A stretch of 64,000 bases of DNA, from positions 105,338,001 through 105,402,000 of the forward strand of contig NC_135810.1 of the NCBI RefSeq assembly GCF_964213995.1, written 5' to 3'. The notes below the pieces were generated by a model that was given only the letters and a program-made list of their open reading frames with translations, did not search any database and was not told the origin of the DNA. Below are positions 13,938-64,000 of the stretch, piece after piece; positions within the stretch are counted from its first letter, which is position 1, and each line of letters begins with the position of its first letter. A program made the translations under genes and the position numbers. Source of the stretch: Mustelus asterias. Its lineage: Eukaryota.

Positions 13938-14544
13938 CTAGATAGGTAACAAGGTTAGTTAGATTTTAGTGGATTTACCATACATACTTTCTGTAAAATT
14001 CAATAAACTCAATGTTTGAAATTGAAAATATTTAAAAGGGATCTGGAAATTCTGTGGAAACAAGGTGAGGAAGATATTTCTAGTCAAGATGAAGTTCAGC
14101 TGACCCAGTAAGTGTCCACATTGCTTTAGCTACATTCAAGATGTGAAACCAAGACAAGCTACTGTGCCCCGTCAGAACGTTCTGGATAAATCTTTATTGA
14201 TCCAGGTAGCATATTATACTCCCATTGCATTAGTTTCCATCCAGAATAGTTATAAAAAGATATTGCTGTAGATATACAACAGAGAGCAATCAGCAACTGA
14301 AAGACAAGAGATTCTTTCGCTATGAATGCTAGCAGGCCTGCTGTACATTTTGAACAATTCCTGTTCTCTATAAAGAGCGATACTTGCTCGAATATTGTAG
14401 TGGAACAGCTCTTTGGAGCTCCACGAGCAATGGTACAGGCAATAAAATATGTTCCTTTGCCCCACCATGGGCTGTTTTAAGTTGTCCAGACTCTAGGCTG
14501 TGGAATTCACTGAAGCCTCTCCAGCCTTCAAACCAACAAAGATA

Positions 14545-14760
14545 AGAACAAAATACTGCAAATGGTGGAAATCTGAAATAAAACCAGAAAATGCTGGAAA
14601 AACGCAGCAGGCTGGCAGCATCTGTGAAAAGAGAAACAGAGTTAACATTTTGAATCCATATGCCTCTTCTGAAGTAGTCATGTGGACTTGAAACGTTGGC
14701 TCAGTTTCTCTCTCCACAGATACTGCCAGACCTGCTGAGCTTTTCCAACATTTTCTGTTT
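14545..14760. mobile_element. Older palindromic copy of the 62438 family
   Basis: cagaaaatgctggaaa...gcagcatctgtg and its inverse cacagatactgccagacctgctgag...cattttctg; centre retains gacttGAAAcgtt. Confidence 0.75.
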
Positions 14761-15971
14761 GATGGAGACTTTGACCATCTGTCCTAATAGTTCCTTCAGG
14801 AGCTCAAGTGTCAAACACTGTCAGCTAATATTCCTGGGAAAGGACTTGGGGTATTTTCCAGTTTCCAAAACTCAACTGTGTCATCAGGGAGTAAAGTCGA
14901 GTGGAGATTGGACACAAAGAACGAAGAACAGTACAGCACAGGAAACAGGCCCTTCGGCCCTCCAAGCCTGTGCCGCTCCTTGGTCCAACTAGACCAATCG
15001 TTTGTATCCCTCCATTCCCAGGCTGCTCATGTGACTATCCAGGTAAGTCTTAAAACACTTAAAACATTTATAGAATCATAGAATCCCTACAGTACAGACG
15101 GAGGCCATTTGGCCCATTGAGTCTGTACCGACCACAATCCCACCCAGTCCCCTATTCCCGTAACCCTCATTTACCCTGCTAATCCCCCTGACACTAAGGG
15201 GCAATTTAGCATTAGCCAATCAACCTAACCTGCACATCTTTGGACTGTGGGGAGAAACCAGAGCACCCGGAGGAAACCCACGCAGACACGGGGAGAATGT
15301 GCAAACTCCACACAGACAGTGACCCGAGGCCGGAAGTGAACCCGGATCCCTGGCACTGAGAGGCAGCAGTGCTAACCACTGTGCCACCCCCATTGGTGGG
15401 GCAGAAAGAGAAGAGGTGCCTGGATTAAGAACGGGCAGTGACAAAGATGAGGTGCAGTTCTGATGTACACTTCACTGAGGGATGGTGTGTAGCATGGGCA
15501 AACTAAGAGCATGGTATTAATAAAGGAAACCACTTAAAGAAAATAAATAAATGGATTGAGTTGACAAGTTTTTTTATTGGTGTAAGAAATCTCACTTCAG
15601 CCACAAAGTGACAAAAAAGAAAAGATTGTAAGGGAAGAAATCTTCAGTCTTAAATAAATTCTCTAACCCCTGTTTACTGTTTCATGTGGGGTTGTTCCAA
15701 GATGCATAGGAATGCGACCTACTGGTCATGCTACGGCAGTCCAAAAGAGAGGGACATTTGAGACTTGATTTGAAGGTTTCCAGGTGGTTAAAAATAAAAC
15801 TTTTACAAAACTAAGGAAGTAATTTCAACAAAACTCATCTCTCTCTGGACTGTTCTTCCCATTTAAACAGTAATTACAGTATTTAAATATTGTTAACGCA
15901 AACTATCACTGTTGCAATAGCAGAATGTTTCACATGGATTTCTAGGGAGGAATGAACGCATTTCAACTCAC

Positions 15972-24321: not shown

Positions 24322-24694
24322 CTGAGAAAGAAAGAAACATCTATTAACAAACAGCTTGGGGAATTCTGTACTTACGTACATTTTCTGCAGTGGCATATTT
24401 TTAAGTAAGGGCCTGGTATATTACTTGGTGTGTGAAATCTTAACACTTATTTTAAATTATTACTTATTTTCAAACTAACCAAATGCTGATATTCAGCTCA
24501 ATATGGGGAGGGGGGTAACCACTGACGAGGAACTCAAATGCCCTTCATCCAATATGTGAGGATATATTGGGCTTGGCATGGACGGACAGTAAATGTCAGA
24601 AAATGTGAAAGAGGTTGACTCTTTGTGGCAAATGTTTTTGGGTCATCTGTCTTCTTCATAATGCTATTAGGTCATCTTACCCTGCCAGGTTGTT

Positions 24695-25750
24695 AGAACA
24701 GGATATGGCGCTCGACTCATCGATCAACAGATCCGACGCGCCACAGCGAAAAACCGCACCGACCTCCTCAGAAGACAAACATGGGACATGACCAACAGAG
24801 TACTCTTCATCGTCCAGTACTTCCCTGGAGTGTAGAAGCTACGACATCTTCTTCGGAGTCTTCAACACGTCATCGATGAAGACGAACATCTCGCCAAGGC
24901 CATCCCCACACCCCCACTACTTGCCTTCAAACAACCGCACAACCTCAAACAGACCATTGTTCGCAGCAAACTACCCAGCCTTCAGGAGAACAGTGACCAT
25001 GACACCACACAACCCTGCCACAGCAACCTCTGCAAGACGTGCCGGATCATCAATACGAATGCCATCATCACACGTGAGAACACCATCCACCAGGTACACG
25101 TTACCTACTCATGCAAGTCGGCCTGATACGCTGCAGGAAAGGGTGTCCTGAGCATGGTACATCAGCGGGACCATGCAGACGCTACGACAACAGATGAATG
25201 GACACCACTCGACAGTCACCAGGCAGGAGTGTTCTCTTCCTGTCGGGGAACACTTCAACAGTCAAGGGCATTCAGCCTCTGATCTTCGGGTAAGCGTTCT
25301 CCGAGGTGGCCTTCAAGACACACGACAACGCAGAATCGCCGAGCAGAAACTGATAGCCAAGTTCCGCACACATGAGGACGGCCTCAACCGGGATCTTGGG
25401 TTCATGTCACACAGCATGTAACCCCCACCATTTGGCCTGGGCTTGCAAAATCTTACTAATTGTCCTGGCTTGAGACAATTCACACCTCTTTAACCTGTGC
25501 TTAACTCTCTCTCCACTCGCACTGTCTGTACCTGTAAAGACTTGATTACCTGTAAAGACTCGCATTCCAACCATTAGCTTGCAATTGAGTCTGTTTCTAT
25601 ATATGCCGTTTGTGAACCCAACTCTCCACTCATCTGATGAAGGAGCAGCGCTCCGAAAGCTCGTGATACCAAATAAAGTTGGACTTTAACTTGGTGTTGT
25701 GAGACTTCTTACTGTGCCCACCCCAGTCCAACGCCGGCATTCCGACATCA
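24695..25750 (+). mobile_element. 5'-truncated Penelope-like retroelement (GIY-YIG endonuclease end plus 3' pseudo-LTR)
   Basis: Degenerate ORF with a CxxxxCxxC knuckle and QTLRQQMNGH...PVGEHF...RRIAEQKLIAKF...GLN, typical of the PLE GIY-YIG domain. The 3' end ggactttaac.tggtgttgtgagact...ccagtccaacgccggcat carries a hammerhead motif. Confidence 0.88.
25630..25666 (+). ncRNA. Minimal type I hammerhead ribozyme motif in the Penelope pseudo-LTR
   Basis: tcat-CTGATGA-a-GGAGC-a-GC-GCTCC-GAAA-gc-TC-gtga: both core boxes, helix II GGAGC/GCTCC, palindromic mini helix III (AGCT), UC cleavage site, helix I ucau/guga. Confidence 0.75.
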
Positions 25751-26382
25751 GGTTGTTAGAAGTATGGTGTCTTCTCCCATTTCTATTCCCAAGTTTTGTA
25801 GATAATGTACACAGCCTTCAATATGGCTGGGCCTCCCCTCTTTCTGGGCATGTGTTGCTGCCTTTAGGGAGGGTGTCCTAGAGTGCCAAATCAAGCAACG
25901 TTCCTTGTATCCACCTTATACAATAGCTTGTCAATTTCATCCATCCATGATGGTGAATCTGTGCCTTCTACCGTTTGCCCAAAGACTCCATTTAGTATCT
26001 TCCCTTGACTTTTATCTTCCAGTTTCTTACCCTGCACATAGCCTTCAAGGCCAAAATAATTTTTGTCCCCATACATAGCCATTTACCTATAAGTGGCTGC
26101 ATCCTTGTCAATATTTTCAGCAGCCCTTTAAGAGTTTTTCCAGATATCCCCCAGTCTATCAAATATGCTTTCTGCTCTTAGGTTAATATCCACAGTAGGG
26201 AATATTACAAACAGGATATTGAGTTTGACACTGGAGTCTTCTTGTACTGTGACAGAACTGCACAACTGCCCACTATATAAATGAAACTGTGCTCAACGGG
26301 AATCAGAGAACATCAAAATACCATCTCAAATGCAATGTACAGACAACGTGCTTTAAATTCAATTTATCCAGTTCATCTTTAC

Positions 26383-27068: not shown

Positions 27069-27755
27069 TATCAGTATCTGGCTACGTCCTAAGCAAAGCT
27101 GAGGGAGAGAGGGGGGAGGGAGGGAGGGATTTTACTGCACTGGTCAGCATGTAAAAGTGGTTCTTATGGTAAACTTACTTTACAAAAATGAGAAAACAAA
27201 AACAAATCAGAATGCTGAAATGTTAAGGGCCAGGAAAAATTACGGTAATAAAACCATTCTTGGAAGTCTTGAAGGTTCACTAATAATGGTATTATTGGCG
27301 AATACATTCACAAAAAGAGGTAATAATTTCAAAATTACTAGGATGAAGGATACAGTAGAAAAAATATTCTGCACCCTCTCCTTTCCCTCTCCCCTATCTA
27401 TTCTATATATGGTATGCTTTGTATAGTGTGCAAGAAACAATACTTTTCACTGTATACCAATACATGTGACAATAATAAATCAAATCAAAATTTTCATACA
27501 GCAATTTACAAGGGTTGTCAATGCTTCACTGCAAGTGTTTATTGTAGTTGAGGTAACATGCAGAGTTAGTTAAATATTTGAAAAAATTATGAAATTGTGA
27601 TATCAGTATCTGGCTACGTCCTAAGCAAAGCTGAGGGAGAGAGGGGGGAGGGAGGGAGGGATTTTACTGCACTGGTCAGCATGTAAAAGTGGTTCTTATG
27701 GTAAACTTACTTTACAAAAATGAGAAAACAAAAACAAATCAGAATGCTGAAATGT
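27069..27755. repeat. Dispersed direct duplication, 2 x 155 bp (27069-27223 and 27601-27755)
   Basis: tatcagtatctggctacgtcc...gaatgctgaaatgt is identical in both copies by eye. Confidence 0.92.
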
Positions 27756-28520
27756 AAAATACAATAAAGCCGAGCTTGTACAAAGAAGCACAATGGCTAA
27801 AAATTAACTTAGGAATACAAATTCAGCAGGAATTAAAGATTTAGACATTTGAATATTCATCATGGATGATTGAGTATCCATGATATTGTAAATCTCTTAT
27901 AATAATTATGATTAATTGCTCTCTGTAGTTACCTAGCAAGTCACTCGGTTATATCATATCACTATAGTGCCTTTACAGGGCACCTAGTGGTTGGAGAAAC
28001 ATACAAACATACAAAATTTGACTCCTCAAGTTTGCTCTGCCATTCAATAAGATCATGGCTGATCCACTTCTGTTTCAAGTTCTGCATTCCCACCAATCCC
28101 AGATAACTTTTGATTCCCATGCCTAACAAGAAATCTATCTACCTCCACCTTAAAAATATTCAATGAACCTGCCTCCACCCTTCTGAGGCAGAGAGTTCCA
28201 AAGTCACAAAGCTCTCTGAGAATCTTTTTAAGGGGCAATTGGATATTGCAATAGAGGGATTTAGAGATCATTATGGATGAATGAATTGAAGAGGAGTCTT
28301 CCTCAACTGTAATTACCTTGTGATAATTTCACAAAAGGACACATCTGGTTTAATGTTCTTTTCAACTCCACATTCATTGCTGCTTTTATATTTTTCTCCC
28401 TTTTCTGCTCAGCTTGGTACCAATCTTGTAATTGTTCCTTGCTTTTCACTTCACAATTGAAAGCCTACTCAAGGACTAAACAAAGCTCTATTATCTCAAA
28501 TTGTTTAAAAAGTTCAATAC

Positions 28521-42720: not shown

Positions 42721-45060
42721 CTATTTGTTCACGCTTAACAACTTAATGGCAAACTGTTACTTGTCTTCCTCTGAAGTGGCATCCACAAAATATTCCACAT
42801 CTATTTTGTTAAATATTTTTTATTTTTAAAGTCCTATTAAATGTATTCTAAAGGCCAGTGGTGGCACAGCGGTTGGCACTCCCGCCTCACAGCAGGGACC
42901 AGGGTTCAATTCCCGGCTTGGGTCACTGTCTGTGCGGCGTCTGCACGTTCTCCTCGTGTCTGTGTGGGTTTCCTCTGGGTGCTCCAGTTTCTTCCCATGG
43001 TATGAAAGGGTTAGGTGCATCGACCATGCTAAAAATTCTCCCTCAGTGTACCCGAATAGACGCTAGAGTGTGGCGACTAGGGGATTTTCACAGTAACTTC
43101 ATTGCAGTGTTAATGTAAGCCTACTTGTGACACTAATAAATCAACTTTAAAAACTTAATCAATTAATAGGTCAGTACTACTGATTTGCAAGTGATAGTGT
43201 GAAGCCTGCTTCTGTCTCTTGTGGCAATGACAGCAACTTCTGTTGGCAAGTAAGCAAGTTATCCAAATTACATACTCGCAGGATGGTGAATTAGTTTGAC
43301 AAGAAGCTCGAAGGATATTAGCAACTCTCTGGTCCTGAAACAAATGGCCACTCTTTACGAATGTCAGCAATCATTTGAGAGATGGATGAATGAATAGTGT
43401 GGGGATTGAAGAGAGGGTAATGCAGATAAGCCCCAACTGACATTTCCAGCAGGAGTCATTGAGTCTTCAAATCAAAACTTGAAACGTTAAGTCTTATTTC
43501 TCACTCCACAGATGCCACCAGACCTGCTGAGTCATTCCAGCATTTTCATTTTTATTTCAGATTTCCAGCATCTGCAGTATTTTTTTGCTTTAATTACATT
43601 TATATAACACCTTTCACGACTACAGGATTTCCCGAAGCACTTTGCAGCCAATGACATACTTTTCAACTGTTTCGTAGTGTTGGAAACACAGCGGCCAATT
43701 TGTTCACACCAAATCCCCACAAACAGCATGTGATAATGACCAGATAATCTGCTTTTGTGATGTTGACTGAGGGATAAATATTTGCCAGGAAACCAGGGAT
43801 AACTTCCTTTCTCTTCAAGGTAGTGCCATGGGATCTTTTCTGCCCACCTGGGAGATGGGGCTTCAGTTTCCTGTCAAATCTGAAAGATTACACCTCAGGC
43901 AGTGCAGCATTCCCTCAGTACTCTAGTGTCAGCCTTGTTTTTTATGCTCAGGTCCTGGAGTCGAACTTGAACCCACAACCTTCTAGCTCCAAGATAAGGG
44001 TACTACTAATTGAGTCACAGCTGGTACCAGTTTAATACACTCTGCTATCCCAATTCCTTCAGACTACAGTCACTGGAGCAACTGTGGCTTCCCCATTATT
44101 TCCTAACTTGTCACAGATGTGGCTCAACACCCAACCATGTGGGTGCACTTACCCACTGAGCTGTGTGGTATATTTTAATGGAATATTTTTATTTATTTGG
44201 GAGGAAACTTTACTCAGATAACCAAAACTATGAACATAACCCCATTAAGTTATATTTATGGGGTACCATCATATACAAAATTGTCTGGAGGTAGCTTTGA
44301 TTTTGGGGCAAGAGGCAGTGAGCTTGTTTCTCCAAAGTATTGACTGCTTGTACTTAATTGCAGCAACAATTTACCATAGTGCAATTTGAACTTACAGAGA
44401 TAGTGTTGCTAATCAGCTCCATAACCACTATATTACCATGCCTTTTTTTATCTTTAAGTGCCGTGTTATGCATATACATCCAGTAAGGTGTAACTAAATG
44501 TTATTATTTTTTAATCAGCAAAGTTTTCTTTGGCAATAGCTATTTGTAGAATCTTGCCGTGTGCAAACTGGCTGCCACATATGCCTACATAAGAGCATGC
44601 ATTCAATTTATATCATGTGAATTGTTTTGATTTATTTTGATTATGGTGTGGTGCAAATGCAAGTATTTCTTTCCAAACCTCAACTGGTAATAGTATGATA
44701 ATTTGGACCAGTTTTGCCTCCATTTTTATTTAAATATCAATAAACCTTGGTTTTGTGTAACAAGAGAAATCAGCAGTGAACATCCATCATTGTGGAAGCT
44801 AGACCCAAAACATTGGATTACTATATATCCTTTAACATAGATAACATCCCAAGATACTTCAGAGGAGTAATCACACGTGAAAAAATGACACCGGACAATA
44901 AAAAGGCTTATTTTATACAAAGAATGTAGGGACCAAGTTGCCAGGATAGACCATTGACTAAAAGCGTATACATGGGTTCAAGAGGTGACTGCCAGACAAA
45001 ACAGCCACAAAATATTCAGTGATTAATCTACAGTCGAGGACATCCTGTCCAGAAGAAATG

Positions 45061-45165
45061 TTGTGGAGATGCCGGCATTGGACTGGGGTAAACACAGTAA
45101 GAAGTTTAACAACATCAGGTTAAAGTCCAACAGGTTTATTTGGTAGTAAAAGCCACACAAGCTTT
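45061..45165 (-). mobile_element. Penelope-like 3' terminal fragment
   Basis: gtggagatgccggcattggactggggtaaacacagtaagaag...aagcttt, homologous to 54808-54912; breaks off within the hammerhead motif. Confidence 0.8.
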
Positions 45166-54267: not shown

Positions 54268-55278
54268 ATCTGCTCCACCATTCACTTTTTTCATAGCTGA
54301 TCAAAAAAGTCAATATCCTGATCCTGCCTTCCCCCCATATCCCTCGATCCCTTTAACCCCAAGAGCCATATCTAATTTCTTTGTGAAATCATACAATGTT
54401 TTGGCCTCAACTACTTTCTGTGGTAGTGAATTCCACAGATTTACCACTCTCTGGGTGAAGAAATTTCTCCTCACCTCAGTCTTAAAAGATTTACCCCTCA
54501 TCCTCAAGTAATAACCCCTAGTTCTGGACTCCCCCACCATTGGCAACATTCTTTCTGAATCTACCCTGTCTTATCCTGTTAGAAAATTATAAGTTTCTAT
54601 GTGATCCCCTCTCACTTTTCTAAACTCCAATGAGTACAATCCTAATTTTCTCTCCTCATATGACAGACCTGCCATTCCAGGAATCAGCCTGGTAAACCTT
54701 TGTTGCATTCACTCTATAGCAAGGACATTCTTCCTCAGATAAGGACACCAAAATTGCACACAATACTCCAAGTGTGGCCTCACCAACGCCCTGTACCATT
54801 GCAGTAATGATGTGGAGATGCCGGCGTTGGACTGGGGTAAGCACAGTAAGAAGTCTCACAACACCAGGTTAAAGTCCAACAGGTTTATTTGGTAGCAAAT
54901 ACCATAAGCTTTCGGAGCAATGCTCCTTCGTCAGATGGAGTGGTCTCTGTTCTCAAACAGGGCACAGACACAGAAATCAAATTACAGAATACTGATTAGA
55001 ATGCAAATCTCTACAGCCAGCCAGGTCTTAAATGTACAGACAATGTATGTACATTTAAGACCTGGCTGGCTGTAGAGATTTGCATTCTAATCAGTATTCT
55101 GTAATTTGATTTCTGTGTCTGTGCCCTGTTTGAGAACAGAGACCACTCCATCTGACGAAGGAGCATTGCTCCGAAAGCTTATGGTATTTGCTACCAAATA
55201 AACCTGTTGGACTTTAACCTGGTGTTGTGAGACTTCTTACTGTGCCATTGCAGTAAAACATCTCTATTCCTAGCTCAA
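54268..55278 (-). mobile_element. CR1 3' fragment interrupted by a palindromic Penelope insertion
   Basis: ESRTRG...FFTQRVVNLWNSLPQ; the CR1 sequence resumes after 55245. Confidence 0.85.
54808..55245. mobile_element. Palindromic Penelope pseudo-LTR insertion with 198-bp perfect arms and 11-12-bp TSD
   Basis: Arms 54841-55038 and 55048-55245, 9-nt spacer gacaatgta, extra 33 nt on the left. TSD (c)cattgcagtaa at 54796-54807 and 55245-55256. Hammerhead motif in each arm (54902-54938 minus, 55148-55184 plus). Confidence 0.92.
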
Positions 55279-58145: not shown

Positions 58146-58346
58146 CAAAATACTGCAGATTCTGGAAATCTGAAATGAAAACAGAAAATAACGCAAATAC
58201 TCAGCAGGTCTGGCAGCATCTGTAAAGAGACATAGGGATAACATTTTATATCAATGAGCATTCATCAGAATTGAAGTGTTAATTGTTCCTCTCCAGAGAT
58301 GCGGTCAGACCTGAGTATTTCCACTATTTTCTGCTTTCATTTCAGT
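58146..58346. mobile_element. Degenerate palindromic copy of the 62438 family (a single arm also lies at ~43475-43590)
   Basis: ctcagcaggtctggcagcatctg ... cagagatgcggtcagacctgag inverted pair. Confidence 0.65.
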
Positions 58347-60785
58347 TTCTGTGAAACACTGGCAGATGGTGGAACTGCTTCTTTTCTTATTATTTCACTA
58401 TGTAAATTGCATAGGTTCATTTAAGGGGAAGCTTAATAAACAGAAGGGAAAGGGAATAGATGTTGATACTGATTGGTTTAGATGAAGAGGGGGGGCCCAG
58501 ATGGCTGCATGACTGCTGTACATATGTAATTATCCAACTATCCCCTGCTATTATTTCTGGCCAAATATGCCTGATTTAACTTCACAGATATACGATGTTT
58601 ACTGTCTCCAACTTTGCATCTGGTGCTGTGTGCCAGAAAGAACAGAGGTTAGCTGAAAGCCACAGAACAAATGATCCATTTCAATGGCTGAGTGTGTGCC
58701 ATGTGCCTCAGCCTTTTACAGAGTCCTTCAGTTAATGATAAACCATTAAATGCTCAGTCGCAGAGATCAGCCAAGATACCTTAAAAGTGAATTTCCCCTT
58801 AGCAAGGTTAATCACAAAAGGTTATTACGGTATCCATGGAATCCAAACAAACCTTACTAAGGGACACAGACTGTCCTATCATTAGTGTGCGGACATCATC
58901 CTTTTGCAGACATGAGAGACCATCCAGGGAAGAAGATGTTACTTCCTCTGAATTAGAATTAAAATTGACAAAGACAAAACTCTGATGTCAAAATCAATTG
59001 AGAAGGAGGAATGAAATTTCAGTGTCTCACAACCTCAGGTGAGTGAGCCTGTTCTGTATAATTTATGAGGATTGTGTACAAGAATGGAATGGCGACAAGT
59101 CTCCGACAATGCTTGAAATTAACACCGGTTGTTCTGTGCTACAGATGAGGAAACTGAAAGTGTCTTTAACAGATTGTGCAGGTTCAGTTTAAAGCATGGA
59201 TTGTGTGTTTAATCAAATAGGTTTGAAGGTAGACTGATTAAATGGCAACATCTTTAAAATATGTTCTGTGGATGTGGTCGATGCTTTTGCAACCACATCA
59301 ATTGCCCAAATTTAGTCGGCCTGAGAAGGTGGTACTTAACCTTCTATATCTTTGTTTTAAAAACAATTAAGTGGTTTCTAGGCCTCTTCGGGAGTCATTA
59401 CAATTCAAGCACATTGTGGAGTTGGAGTCGCAGATAAACTGAACCAGGAAGAGAAAGCAGATTTTCTTCCCTGATGGGCATTAGCAAAACATCTGTGTTT
59501 CTTAGCAATTCACAAGCTTTTATAGTAATTTTAAAAGTGTCAGACCTCTAACCGTGTTCTCATCTGTTTGTGTGCTTATGTATGCTACTCAAACTGATAG
59601 CAATCCAAATATCTTTCTTCAAACAAATGCATTGTACAATATCTTCTAAAATGACATCTGTTGCATGTTACTTTAATTTTTTTCATGACCAGAAGGTTTC
59701 CCAGTAACAGAAATGGAAATTGCAAGTCACTGGTTGGAGTTTTCTGCAGACTTCCTGATGTAATGGGGGATGTATAAATACAGAGCTTAGAAAAACATAC
59801 AGCAAAACAATGTGGTTAGAATGGAAGATTAATTTTCACAGACTGGGAGATGAAGAACAGCTTGAATAATAATGGCAATGAGTTTCTAGCAGTATGTAGT
59901 GCACATTGAGATTACATTTCTTCAGCTTTTATAAATTGGTGATAAATCTTTGAATTGTTTCGAAGTAGGCATTTAAAATAAATGACTCACCAAGTGTTTT
60001 AAAATAATAGACAATAATTTAACACAAAGGCAACATTCTGCATTCTACAAGTGGTACACATATGAAAAAAAACTGAACTGAGTTAATTTATAAAAAGCTT
60101 AATGAGAACTGCTAAAGTTTCCCACAGCAGTAGATTTAGCATAATAAGAAAGAAGAAGGAAAGACTTCAACTTATATTGCAAGATGTGTGGGTTAGGTTG
60201 ATTGGCCATGCTAAATTGACCCTAGTGTCAGGGAATTAGCAGGGTAAATATGTGGAGTTAGGGGAATAGGGCCTGGGTGGGGGATCGTGGTCGGTGCAGA
60301 CTTGATGGGCCGAATGGCCTCATTCTGCACTATAGGGATTCTATGATTCTATGCACCTTTCGTGACATCAGGATGTCTCAAAGTGTTTTAAAGCAAATGA
60401 AGCATTTCTGAAGTGTGGTCACTATTGTTATGTAGGAAACACAGCAGCTAATTTGAACATGCCAGCAAACAGAAACTCTGTTTGATGATCACCAGTTAAT
60501 CAGTTTTTATAATGTTGATTGAGGGATAACAATTGGCCAAGAAATAACGTCACCGCTCTTCTGCAAACTGGTGCCAAAGGATCTTATATCTGTGAAAGCG
60601 GATAGAGCCTTTGTTTACTGTCTCATCTGAAAAGCAGCACTTTTGATGGCGCTGCACTGGAGTATCAGCCTCGAATTTTGTGCTCAAGTCTCAAGAAAGG
60701 GACTTGAATTCACAGCCTTCTAACTCAGAGGCAAAATTACTACCAGCTGAACCTTGCCTGAGACAGCATCACCGCAATGGACACT

Positions 60786-61498: not shown

Positions 61499-62437
61499 CC
61501 CCAAGGCTCTTAAAGTACTGGTTAAATTAGAAGGTGAACTCCTATAAAATATCCTTCCTTGAAAATACATTGTAAAAACTTTTTGACTTAAGCTTGACAA
61601 TGATACTCTCTCCTTGATATGGGAGCTATGCTGCCCCTCTCATGAAGAATGATGATGTTGTGGCATAAACTATGTTATGATTATTATTATCTCTAGTAAT
61701 CAGCTTTGAGTTATCACACTTGCAGTGATTTGGTATGATTGCCAATCCTTCATTTTTACTGCAAGGATCATCCTTCCTGCTGGTGGCTGCTATGACAACC
61801 AAAATCAGTGGTGCAAAACAGCCTGATCACACTTATGGCGTTTATGGAGGCAGAATAAGGCAGCATGTAGATGGGAATGATTTTAATGTTATCATCTTAT
61901 TTTCAGATTCAGGTTCTGGATAGAAGGTTTCATTTATGTTTTATGGCTTCATGCAAAGCCTTCTTTCAGAACAATATTGCAACCATATCATCTATCTGAT
62001 CTGATTTCACTTTGGATGCCTGTCAAGGTGAAGAATATCAGTGCTCGGAATTTGACACTCTTAAAATAAGTACAGCCCAACTGACTACAAAGTAAAGCCA
62101 CCTTTACTCTGCATCAACAATGTACTTTAACAGCCTCTTTTAATTCCCACAGCAATAATCCATATGGGCAGCAATGCCTCTTGTGCTATGGGCCCATACT
62201 GACCAGGAATTGGATCAAGACAGCTCAAACCCCATTCACATAGAATCCTTATATGTATAAATCTGGGACGGGTTTAGATCCACGTTCCAGAGTGAAGGAA
62301 CTGTGTACTAGCCCACTGCCCACTTAGTCCTTGGTCAGTAAGCATTGTAGAAAGAGGAACTGACATTCTGTCATGATACATGCTGGGTCTCATGTTATAT
62401 CTCATGAGCAATGCAAGAGAGGCATATTGTATAATGT

Positions 62438-62661
62438 AAAAGCAAAATATTGCGGATGCTGGAATCTGAAAGACAAACAGAAAATGCTGGAAAATCTCAG
62501 CAGGTCTGACAGCATCTGTGGGGAGAGAATAGAGCCAACATTTTGAGCCTAGCTGACCCTTCATCAGAGCTCTGACGAAGGGTCTTCTAGACTCAAAACA
62601 TTGGCTCTATTCTCTCCCCACAGATGCTGTCAGACCTGCTGAGATTTTCCAGCATTTTCTG
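62438..62661. mobile_element. Palindromic short element (probably Penelope-like pseudo-LTR) with 92-bp arms and 14-bp TSD
   Basis: Arms 62478-62569 and 62570-62661 centred on cagag|ctctg, extra 40 nt on the left. TSD atattgtataatgt at 62424-62437 and 62662-62675. Decayed hammerhead CTGACGA-AGGGTC-ttcta-GACTC-aAAA-catt. Confidence 0.82.
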
Positions 62662-64000
62662 ATATTGTATAATGTGCCTCCCTCCCTTCATGCCAGCCAG
62701 GTTATATTATCAGGATGTTTGGTGTTCCTCTGTAACTTATGGCACCATTGTTTACAAACTGTGCATGGTGGCACATTGCTGGACCCGTAATCCAGAGGAT
62801 TTGTCTAATAATTCAGAGAATGTGAGTTTAATGGCCATGTCAGGACTTGCATTCAGTAAAACAAAATCATGCACTAACATGATTGAGTCTTCACTGACCT
62901 TTGGAGTGGTCCAGCACTCAGTTGTAACAAATTGCTACACGTGCTATCTCCTCAGGGCTTTCGAGGATGGGCAATAAGTACTGGCTTCATCAGCAAGGTC
63001 CACATTCCAAGAATGTATTAAAAAAAGCAAACGCACAAACTTATTGATTCAAATTTGATAGCTTTACTTTGATAAATTAGATATGGCAATTGTACTGTAA
63101 CAAAGAACTAAAGGATACATAGTTTTATTTTGTTCCAAACATTAAATTTTGTGAGATTTGATGGCAAGGTCGAGACACTATTGCAAAACTCAGAACCTTC
63201 AGGCCAAAACCAAGTAATTGATAATTCTTGTCACTTTGCAAATAATGAGTACATTTTCATAATTTAGTATTAAGACCACACAGGTCACGTTGCAATGTAC
63301 ACACGAGCACTGTGTGGATCTGTATCTGTGTTTGTTTGCTGTGTAAAATGTATGAAAATCGTCAATAAGCATATAAAAAAAAGTGAACGATACTTTAAAA
63401 TACTGATATTAGGCAATGAATCGATTAGGCTTAAAATTAATTTTAAAGTCCTAGTTATGAATTAGGAAGCTTATTACTAGTTTATTCTTTAATGTGTTAA
63501 AGAGAAAGCACCCAGCATGACAGCAGACTGTTTTTCTATTTCAAAGATCTAACCCATTTATTCGGAATTAGCATTACTTATTTAACTCTCTTTGAAGGTA
63601 ACAAATTAAAATATTGTATCCTGTCATAGCTAACAATGAAGAAGTTAAGAACAGATAGCAGACAGGAATACTGTACATGCAATTGTTCTGGTGCTGTAAG
63701 ACATTATTTGCTATTGTTGCCACAGGTGAAGAGACTCTGATCAAGATGCGTGAAAGCAACAGAGATGAAATAGGAATGTTCCAGATGTTCATTGTATGGT
63801 CTGCTGTTACACGGAACCAGTAAGATTCTGACTGCTAAAGGCACCCATCATATAATTTGGTCCTATACGACAGGGGATCAAATGGGAAAAGGTCACAAGA
63901 CTGCATGTTAGTTTTCAGCATTGTTCATTGTTTCAATAGATGTTTAGGGTTTTATAAAATTGTGTAAACTTAGCAATTGTGTCATTTCTGAAGAACCTTA

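Follow-up and report, generated by a model that had tools for sequence, protein, structure and literature searches.

How does a perfect inverted repeat, with a hammerhead ribozyme motif on each strand, come to lie inside a dead LINE? Such a structure was found in Mustelus asterias, in the stretch of 64,000 nucleotides of contig NC_135810.1 analysed here (hereafter, the window). Two inverted arms of 198 bp, at 54841-55038 (minus strand) and 55048-55245 (plus strand), match each other with 0 mismatches across a 9-nt spacer (55039-55047); a palindrome call that tolerates one mismatch instead gives 202-nt arms and a 1-nt loop. An exact direct repeat of 12 bp, CCATTGCAGTAA, lies at 54796-54807 and 55245-55256 (plus strand) and has one base in common with the arm end, which gives a target site duplication (TSD) of 11-12 bp. 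The left arm alone carries 33 additional nucleotides (54808-54840, minus strand). A preliminary description had listed identical 198-bp arms, a 9-nt spacer, an 11-12-bp TSD, and an arm 33 nt longer than its partner, all of which are present in the sequence. The hairpin amounts to ~440 bases of DNA and has a folding z-score of -47 relative to 100 shuffles.

The left arm corresponds to the 3' UTR/pseudo-LTR (pLTR) of a Penelope-like element (PLE) and faces outward, with family sequence continuing to 55046, while the right arm has the same sequence and ends at a "short" tip without a tail. The tail of the left arm ends at a "long" tip, the base that precedes the ORF ATG in tandem copies, and the arms begin ~100 nt past the ORF stop, in agreement with the suggestion that the insertion is entirely non-coding. 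At the centre, 8 nt of family sequence that belong to the tailed arm are accompanied by a microhomology (ACA/TGT) and a stutter of 4 nt. The proposed origin from a Penelope-like element in a single insertion event is supported. The hairpin represents a 5'-truncated insertion, in head-to-head arrangement, by a young PLE of Neptune type.

The insertion breaks the decayed reverse transcriptase (RT) coding sequence of a CR1-type LINE (54337-54807, minus strand; 54% identity, E 5e-54, to the 981-aa APE-RT ORF of the window, an open CR1-type frame at 32748-29806 on the minus strand). Other copies of this host repeat run continuously from the left flank to the right flank with a single copy of the duplicated bases. 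Contigs of two other organisms (runs X3 and X7) match the right flank up to the TSD and then continue with 16 and 50 unmatched letters; with their orientation inferred from neighbouring rows, they seem to leave the arm as an empty site would. On the minus strand, 51967-50819 holds a LIPT1-like ORF whose first Met is ~2.85 kb from the insertion. Further coding stretches, both minus, resemble KCTD21 (46514-45714) and ALG8 (23481-23038), and the window also holds a 158-bp direct repeat (27069-27226 and 27601-27758; 99% identical, 532 bp apart).

Several other PLE copies lie in the window. The outer part of the arms had been described as homologous to a GIY-YIG element at 24695-25750. The homology is real and extends over the whole arm and tail, at 75% identity (181 of 241 positions). 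Since it is only 75% identical, this 5'-truncated single-arm copy (24687-25761, plus strand, long tip, 13-bp TSD) is an older relative rather than the source of the arms. A third, short copy of the main family (45058-45165, minus strand, 89%, long tip) has its 5' end a few bases from the hammerhead GAAA box. An unrelated hammerhead-bearing PLE-like family is represented by a fold-back at 62425-62680, with arms 93.5% alike, a tail on the left arm only, a duplication of ~14 bp, and symmetric flanks GAGGC/GCCTC; older pairs of that family lie at 14543-14761 and 58146-58349.

A 47-nt hammerhead-bearing stretch of the arms has 1839 exact matches in the 3.68-Gb genome. Our family sample consists of the first 100 of the 1839 matches listed, all on one contig, which correspond to 76 insertion loci; selection by an exact 47-mer favours young and two-arm copies. 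Among the matches listed, 38 of the 76 loci are simple fold-backs and 36 single arms, the other 2 being complex events with two arms, so that 40 of 76 insertions contain inverted arm pairs. By a rough scaling of 40 per 100 matches to 1839, the young subfamily alone probably holds several hundred two-arm events.

A second search recovered full-length copies, one of which (L126:2564-5242) holds an intact 892-aa ORF and has a 3' end 98% identical to the window arms. The ORF encodes an RT domain (RVT_1, E 5e-10) followed by a GIY-YIG domain on the C-terminal 143 aa (E 5e-05, above the cut-off), and its comparison with solved structures gave no match. It also contains a DKG motif, a linker before the endonuclease (C-x4-C-x2-C) that fits CX2-5CxxC, and a CCHH motif with two Cys inside the GIY-YIG core. 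In most of 32 loci containing the ORF start, the ATG directly follows the element 3' end, an arrangement that corresponds to a partial-tandem pLTR. The family thus combines the hallmarks of endonuclease-positive (EN+) PLEs, namely a single ORF with RT and C-terminal GIY-YIG domains, a pLTR tandem, and an inverted truncated copy with tail and TSD. Passages of PMC8557442 define Neptune/Nematis, a C-terminal EN+ PLE clade, by DKG, linker, and CCHH motifs, and the present family resembles this clade in its RT-then-GIY-YIG order, DKG, CX4CX2C linker, and two Cys in the GIY-YIG core, a placement made by motifs. One further locus (L135:893-2596) is an array of 377-bp units (pLTR end plus the first 111 nt of the ORF), 3 one way and 2 opposite, that forms a retrozyme-like tandem with one hammerhead per unit.

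The perfection of the window arms had been taken as a special mark and as a sign of very recent insertion, neither of which finds support in the family. Among the matches listed, where two-arm insertions are common, 7 of 19 pairs with at least 170 comparable sites are likewise perfect, and 12 of 48 other arms have exactly the sequence of the window arm. Arm divergence within the other listed events is 0.87% (104 of 11987 sites), as compared to 1.17% between events. A perfect 198-bp pair has a probability of 0.18 and bounds divergence only to below 1.5% (95% upper bound).

The ends of the arms follow a simple rule. Arm 3' ends form two groups, the short tip and, 33-36 nt further, the long tip. 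Among the matches listed, 36 of the 37 events with both ends visible pair a long tip with a short tip (p 3e-10 versus free pairing), long-long events number 0, and L013 is the only short-short event. The underlying set of 38 events excludes the window's own hairpin, a second row for L021, and an older L071 pair, and the tip count also excludes L015, one end of which lies off the locus. Older subfamily pairs combine long and short tips in 7 of 9 cases, the remaining 2 being unclear, and the second PLE-like family of the window obeys the same rule. Some long tips enter the ORF start by 3-8 nt (L046, L083, and L076), as predicted by internal initiation. TSDs measure 10-14 bp in 30 of the 33 called among the matches listed. 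Single arms in the same listed matches carry the short tip in 25 of 36 cases, and 7 of these 25 have a 7-14-nt inverted long-tip stub right after the TSD; a distant second arm could escape detection in 7 singles, which had only 1.5 kb of flank.

The inner ends of the two arms are coupled. Among the matches listed, 13 of 38 events have 5' ends no more than 3 nt apart (shuffle mean 0.87, maximum 6 over 20000 shuffles), and 20 of 38 have them within 20 nt (shuffle mean 4.0). Rare variants common to both arms number 13 within these listed events versus 0.3 across events, and no RNA-editing signature was seen in the shared variants (3 A>G and 3 T>C of 14). Of the 24 unequal events among the same matches, 16 have a tail-less arm that extends further 5' (by up to 2.2 kb) and 8 a tailed arm that is longer at the centre, while in another 12 events the arms are equal; the 16:8 bias is not significant alone (p 0.15).

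A third regularity concerns the target. CAG occurs no more than 7 nt outward on the flanks at 24 and 23 of 30 sites among the matches listed, against a background of 11%. Of the two-arm sites in this listed set, 17 of 30 carry the strict dyad CTG-N16-CAG, as do 8 of the 18 single-arm sites (background 0.08%); other spacings from 10 to 23 account for at most 2 sites each, and the relaxed form NTG-N16-CAN is found at 27 of 30 two-arm and 13 of 18 single-arm sites (background 2%). These counts omit 8 of the 38 events (5 without a TSD call and 3 with a doubtful TSD) and 18 of the 36 singles, which have no TSD of at least 10 bp. The dyad defines a 22-bp target that frames the ~12-bp duplication and is the same on both sides. 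The window's own site is CTG-N16-CAT, with the left half-site CTG at 54791-54793 and the right half-site CAT, one base off CAG, at 55259-55261 (both plus strand); in the empty target the two half-sites are 16 nt apart.

We consider a symmetric double nick followed by two primings on one RNA to be the best reading of the window hairpin, with a probability of roughly 0.7. The dyad target, the rule that a tailed arm pairs with a tail-less arm, and the coupled arm lengths and shared rare variants all argue for this reading. A dimeric element protein would read the dyad and nick both strands ~12 nt apart, leaving 3' overhangs. Each free 3' end would then prime on the same RNA, one at the tail site and the other 33-36 nt further in, such that both reverse transcriptions begin inside a tandem or read-through RNA, close to its ATG. 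The two cDNAs would proceed to the same RNA 5' end or stall, yielding equal arms when both reach that end and unequal arms when one stalls. A microhomology, here ACA/TGT with a stutter of 4 nt, would join their 3' ends, and the second strands would be filled in by host repair. The dimer, the ~12-nt-spaced nicks, the internal starts, the shared RNA end, and the microhomology joining are deduced from footprints. This double priming is proposed for a family sampled on one contig by exact 47-mer selection; shared variants could also stem from one source locus or from arm-to-arm conversion, and unequal arms could reflect deletions that arose later in unstable palindromes.

A broader statement, towards which we lean only slightly, is that the family is a sequence-directed retrotransposon in which a dimeric GIY-YIG nuclease reads the spaced palindrome CTG-N16-CAG, cuts it symmetrically, and always starts two reverse transcriptions on one RNA at two fixed sites. 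All insertions, singles included, would then be two-ended, with one arm ranging from zero to kilobases.

The leading alternative requires a single priming. The first cDNA (or an antisense RNA, as proposed by Arkhipova et al., 2013) would fold back and be copied into a hairpin, the second strand would stop, or be cut, 33-36 nt short, and central deletions would follow later. Self-priming is also proposed in passages of PMC3846280. Such snap-back accounts for equal 5' ends and shared variants, and for the window copy alone, where the loop lies on the tailed arm, it fits as well as double priming does. It also fits the 3-4-nt loops of 6 events and the junctions copied into both arms at L059 and L073, among the matches listed. 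At these last two loci (L059:136-3655, a 3.5-kb palindrome with 1.6-kb arms, and L073:2989-4026), the arms stop at the same family base and then share 19-21 nt that do not continue the family. Snap-back clearly happened at L013 (L013:1428-2090), the sole short-short event, in which the palindrome includes 10 nt of the flank, which points to DNA-templated snap-back copying.

As a general account, however, its fixed order of synthesis would always place the loop on one arm type, whereas the loop is found on the tail-less arm in 16 events and on the tailed arm in 8 (among the matches listed), and of 8 simple centres at the window's family position, 7 have it on the tail-less arm (40 scored of 111 candidates). 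The tail-less arm cannot be a copy of the tailed arm, because it is the one that reaches further 5' in those 16 of 24 unequal events. Snap-back would moreover need near-total loss of the first arm to produce the short-tip singles that have a clean TSD but lack a stub, as well as 7-14-nt stubs beside arms of hundreds of nucleotides, and the dyad target is identical on both sides. We therefore regard snap-back as an unlikely, if serious, explanation of the window hairpin.

Priming of both target ends on two unrelated RNAs, with start sites chosen freely, is far less probable. The divergence between arms of one event is not far under that between events (0.87% and 1.17% among the matches listed), as two RNAs would have it. 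Long-long and short-short pairs should then be frequent, but 0 and 1 of 37 were seen, and 5' ends should be independent, but 13 of 38 events have them within 3 nt (both among the matches listed). This reading is largely refuted; a dimer whose two sites are not equivalent could save the tip rule, though it would leave the coupled ends unexplained.

A hairpin that propagates itself, copied whole like a MITE or a retrozyme, is scarcely credible. Besides the window, 15 fold-backs centre near the same family position, as compared to 5 and 5 for two control centres (40 scored of 111 candidates), and one of the control centres has an exact second occurrence at another locus. Against this, the exact window centre was found at none of the 40 loci scored of 111, the 15 differ from one another in centre detail, subfamily (88-100% identity), flanks, and TSD, and the centres of the sample spread over 2.4 kb (among the matches listed). 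A MITE-like replicating palindrome would exist as many copies with the same centre and ends, which is not what these loci look like. A non-LTR retrozyme consists of head-to-tail tandem units, each with a hammerhead (passages of a preprint, 10.64898/2026.07.22.740005, describe retrozymes as head-to-tail tandems), and the window arrangement is head-to-head. The genome search, called for in the preliminary description to distinguish shared from variable centres, thus points to independent events, so the hairpin appears to be made afresh each time, with a mild preference for the window's centre position. Short microhomology of the ACA/TGT type could lie behind this preference. The centre also sits on an initiator-like sequence, CCACATT, with TTTAA 30 nt upstream. 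That the centre marks an RNA start is nonetheless doubtful: only 4 of 121 family 5' ends among the matches listed fall at this position, equal to two other positions, and no tandem-pLTR 5' end falls within 3 nt of it in 32 loci.

Perfect palindromes are a known artefact of sequencing and assembly, and read support covers the junction of the right arm with its flank, not the palindrome centre, but the flanks differ, the tail is on one arm only, the TSD and family dyad frame the hairpin, the host repeat is continuous across it, and a contig of the same sample label (run X1) continues without any difference from 25 nt of arm, less than the 31-nt bridging rule, into 573 nt of right flank, so the fold-back artefact against which the preliminary description had cautioned can be set aside.

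One hammerhead motif was found per arm, as the preliminary description had it, at 54902-54938 on the minus strand and 55148-55184 on the plus strand, the latter with a predicted cut after 55180 (triplet CUU). All parts of a minimal type I hammerhead with a palindromic helix III are present (core CUGANGA and GAAA, helix II, a short helix I, and NUH), although an Rfam scan of the window returned no family at gathering score, hammerhead included. Across 41 distinct variants from the fetched loci, which are related to one another and whose core was fixed by the search pattern, the core-proximal pair of helix I is U-A in 25, C-G in 9, U-G in 4, and unpaired in 3; position 17 is G in 1 of 41, and N7 is variable. 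The variants thus preserve helix I through exchange of U-A for C-G, and they avoid G at position 17. Passages of PMC4209133 describe minimal type I hammerheads of metazoan PLEs, as well as opposite-strand pairs 100-700 bp apart. The present motifs share with them an extra base after the core, a G-C first pair of helix II, a palindromic AGCU replacing helix III, and a short helix I, and differ in no structural respect from the hammerheads of those passages; the young subfamily has U at the cleavage position.

In a predicted read-through RNA, the motif is fully paired within a -400 kcal/mol hairpin. Self-cleavage of a transcript from the window locus is thus predicted to be unlikely, with the motif buried and its partner antisense. 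The two hammerheads would be passengers of the pLTR, and one transcript would contain one sense and one antisense copy, mutually paired. Because these copies pair, the tandem dimer thought to be needed by minimal motifs would not form here. Elsewhere in the family, some 5' ends lie 0-6 nt past the predicted cut (L095, L102, L104, L021, L121, L038, and L071), and 3 of ~25 pLTR-type 5' ends, as given by BLAST, fall within 3 nt of it, which may be a weak hint of cleavage in vivo.

A single hairpin of this kind matters little, being one of many and lying inside a dead LINE. The dyad target, the fixed pairing of start sites, and the coupled arm ends yield exact predictions, and the intact 892-aa ORF and the defined 22-bp target make these predictions testable. 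If the two-ended reading is true, it would explain the inverted pLTR and tail of Penelope-like elements in general. If transcribed, hairpins of the window type could represent a large source of perfect dsRNA.

The anatomy of the hairpin and its opposite-strand hammerheads is already known from parts of PMC8557442, PMC3846280, and PMC4209133. Passages of PMC8557442 and the account of Adineta Pen2a (PMC3846280) describe EN+ PLE insertions with an inverted 5'-truncated copy, a 30-40-bp tail, and a TSD. The window hairpin resembles these in its head-to-head arrangement, tail at one end only (33 nt here), TSD, junction palindrome, and pLTR hammerhead, and differs in that truncation has left only the non-coding end in each arm and no ORF in the middle. 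The same passages name a microsatellite or AT-rich bias and a variable TSD, and in what they cover give no pairing rule, arm coupling, or dyad. The microsatellite bias is hypothesised for Neptune and is not a strict criterion (PMC8557442, in part). It was not seen at the two-arm and single-arm insertion sites of our family, which are ordinary sequence framed by CTG-N16-CAG, a spaced dyad in contrast to the microsatellites proposed for Neptune/Nematis. Double priming, a pairing rule, coupled arms, or a dyad target for PLEs were not found in the open literature, older subscription papers and Repbase being outside the scope of the search.

The origin of the inverted ends and one-sided tail of PLEs is called undefined in passages of PMC8557442. 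The only in vitro system is that of the anole Poseidon protein (PAc), which according to passages of PMC11167929 cleaves and extends both strands in vitro and is predicted to be a dimer. PAc starts at two internal sites that bound the tail, with later steps left open in those passages. Double priming agrees with these properties, since in both systems two internal starts bound the tail and both target strands are cut and extended. PAc, on the other hand, prefers ATT and starts 111-118 nt inside the ORF, whereas the long tip here lies at the ATG, and the passages on PAc do not tie its two start sites to the two arms of one insertion (PMC11167929).

The proposed events also invite comparison with another route to inversion. 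The window hairpin is an ordinary product of a known class, and it is the family-level rules that make the mechanistic question, hitherto open, a testable one. In L1 twin priming, both target strands prime on one RNA and an inversion results, the arms being non-overlapping parts of the RNA. In the family described here, by contrast, the two arms are copies of one and the same stretch, and the second start occurs at a fixed site.
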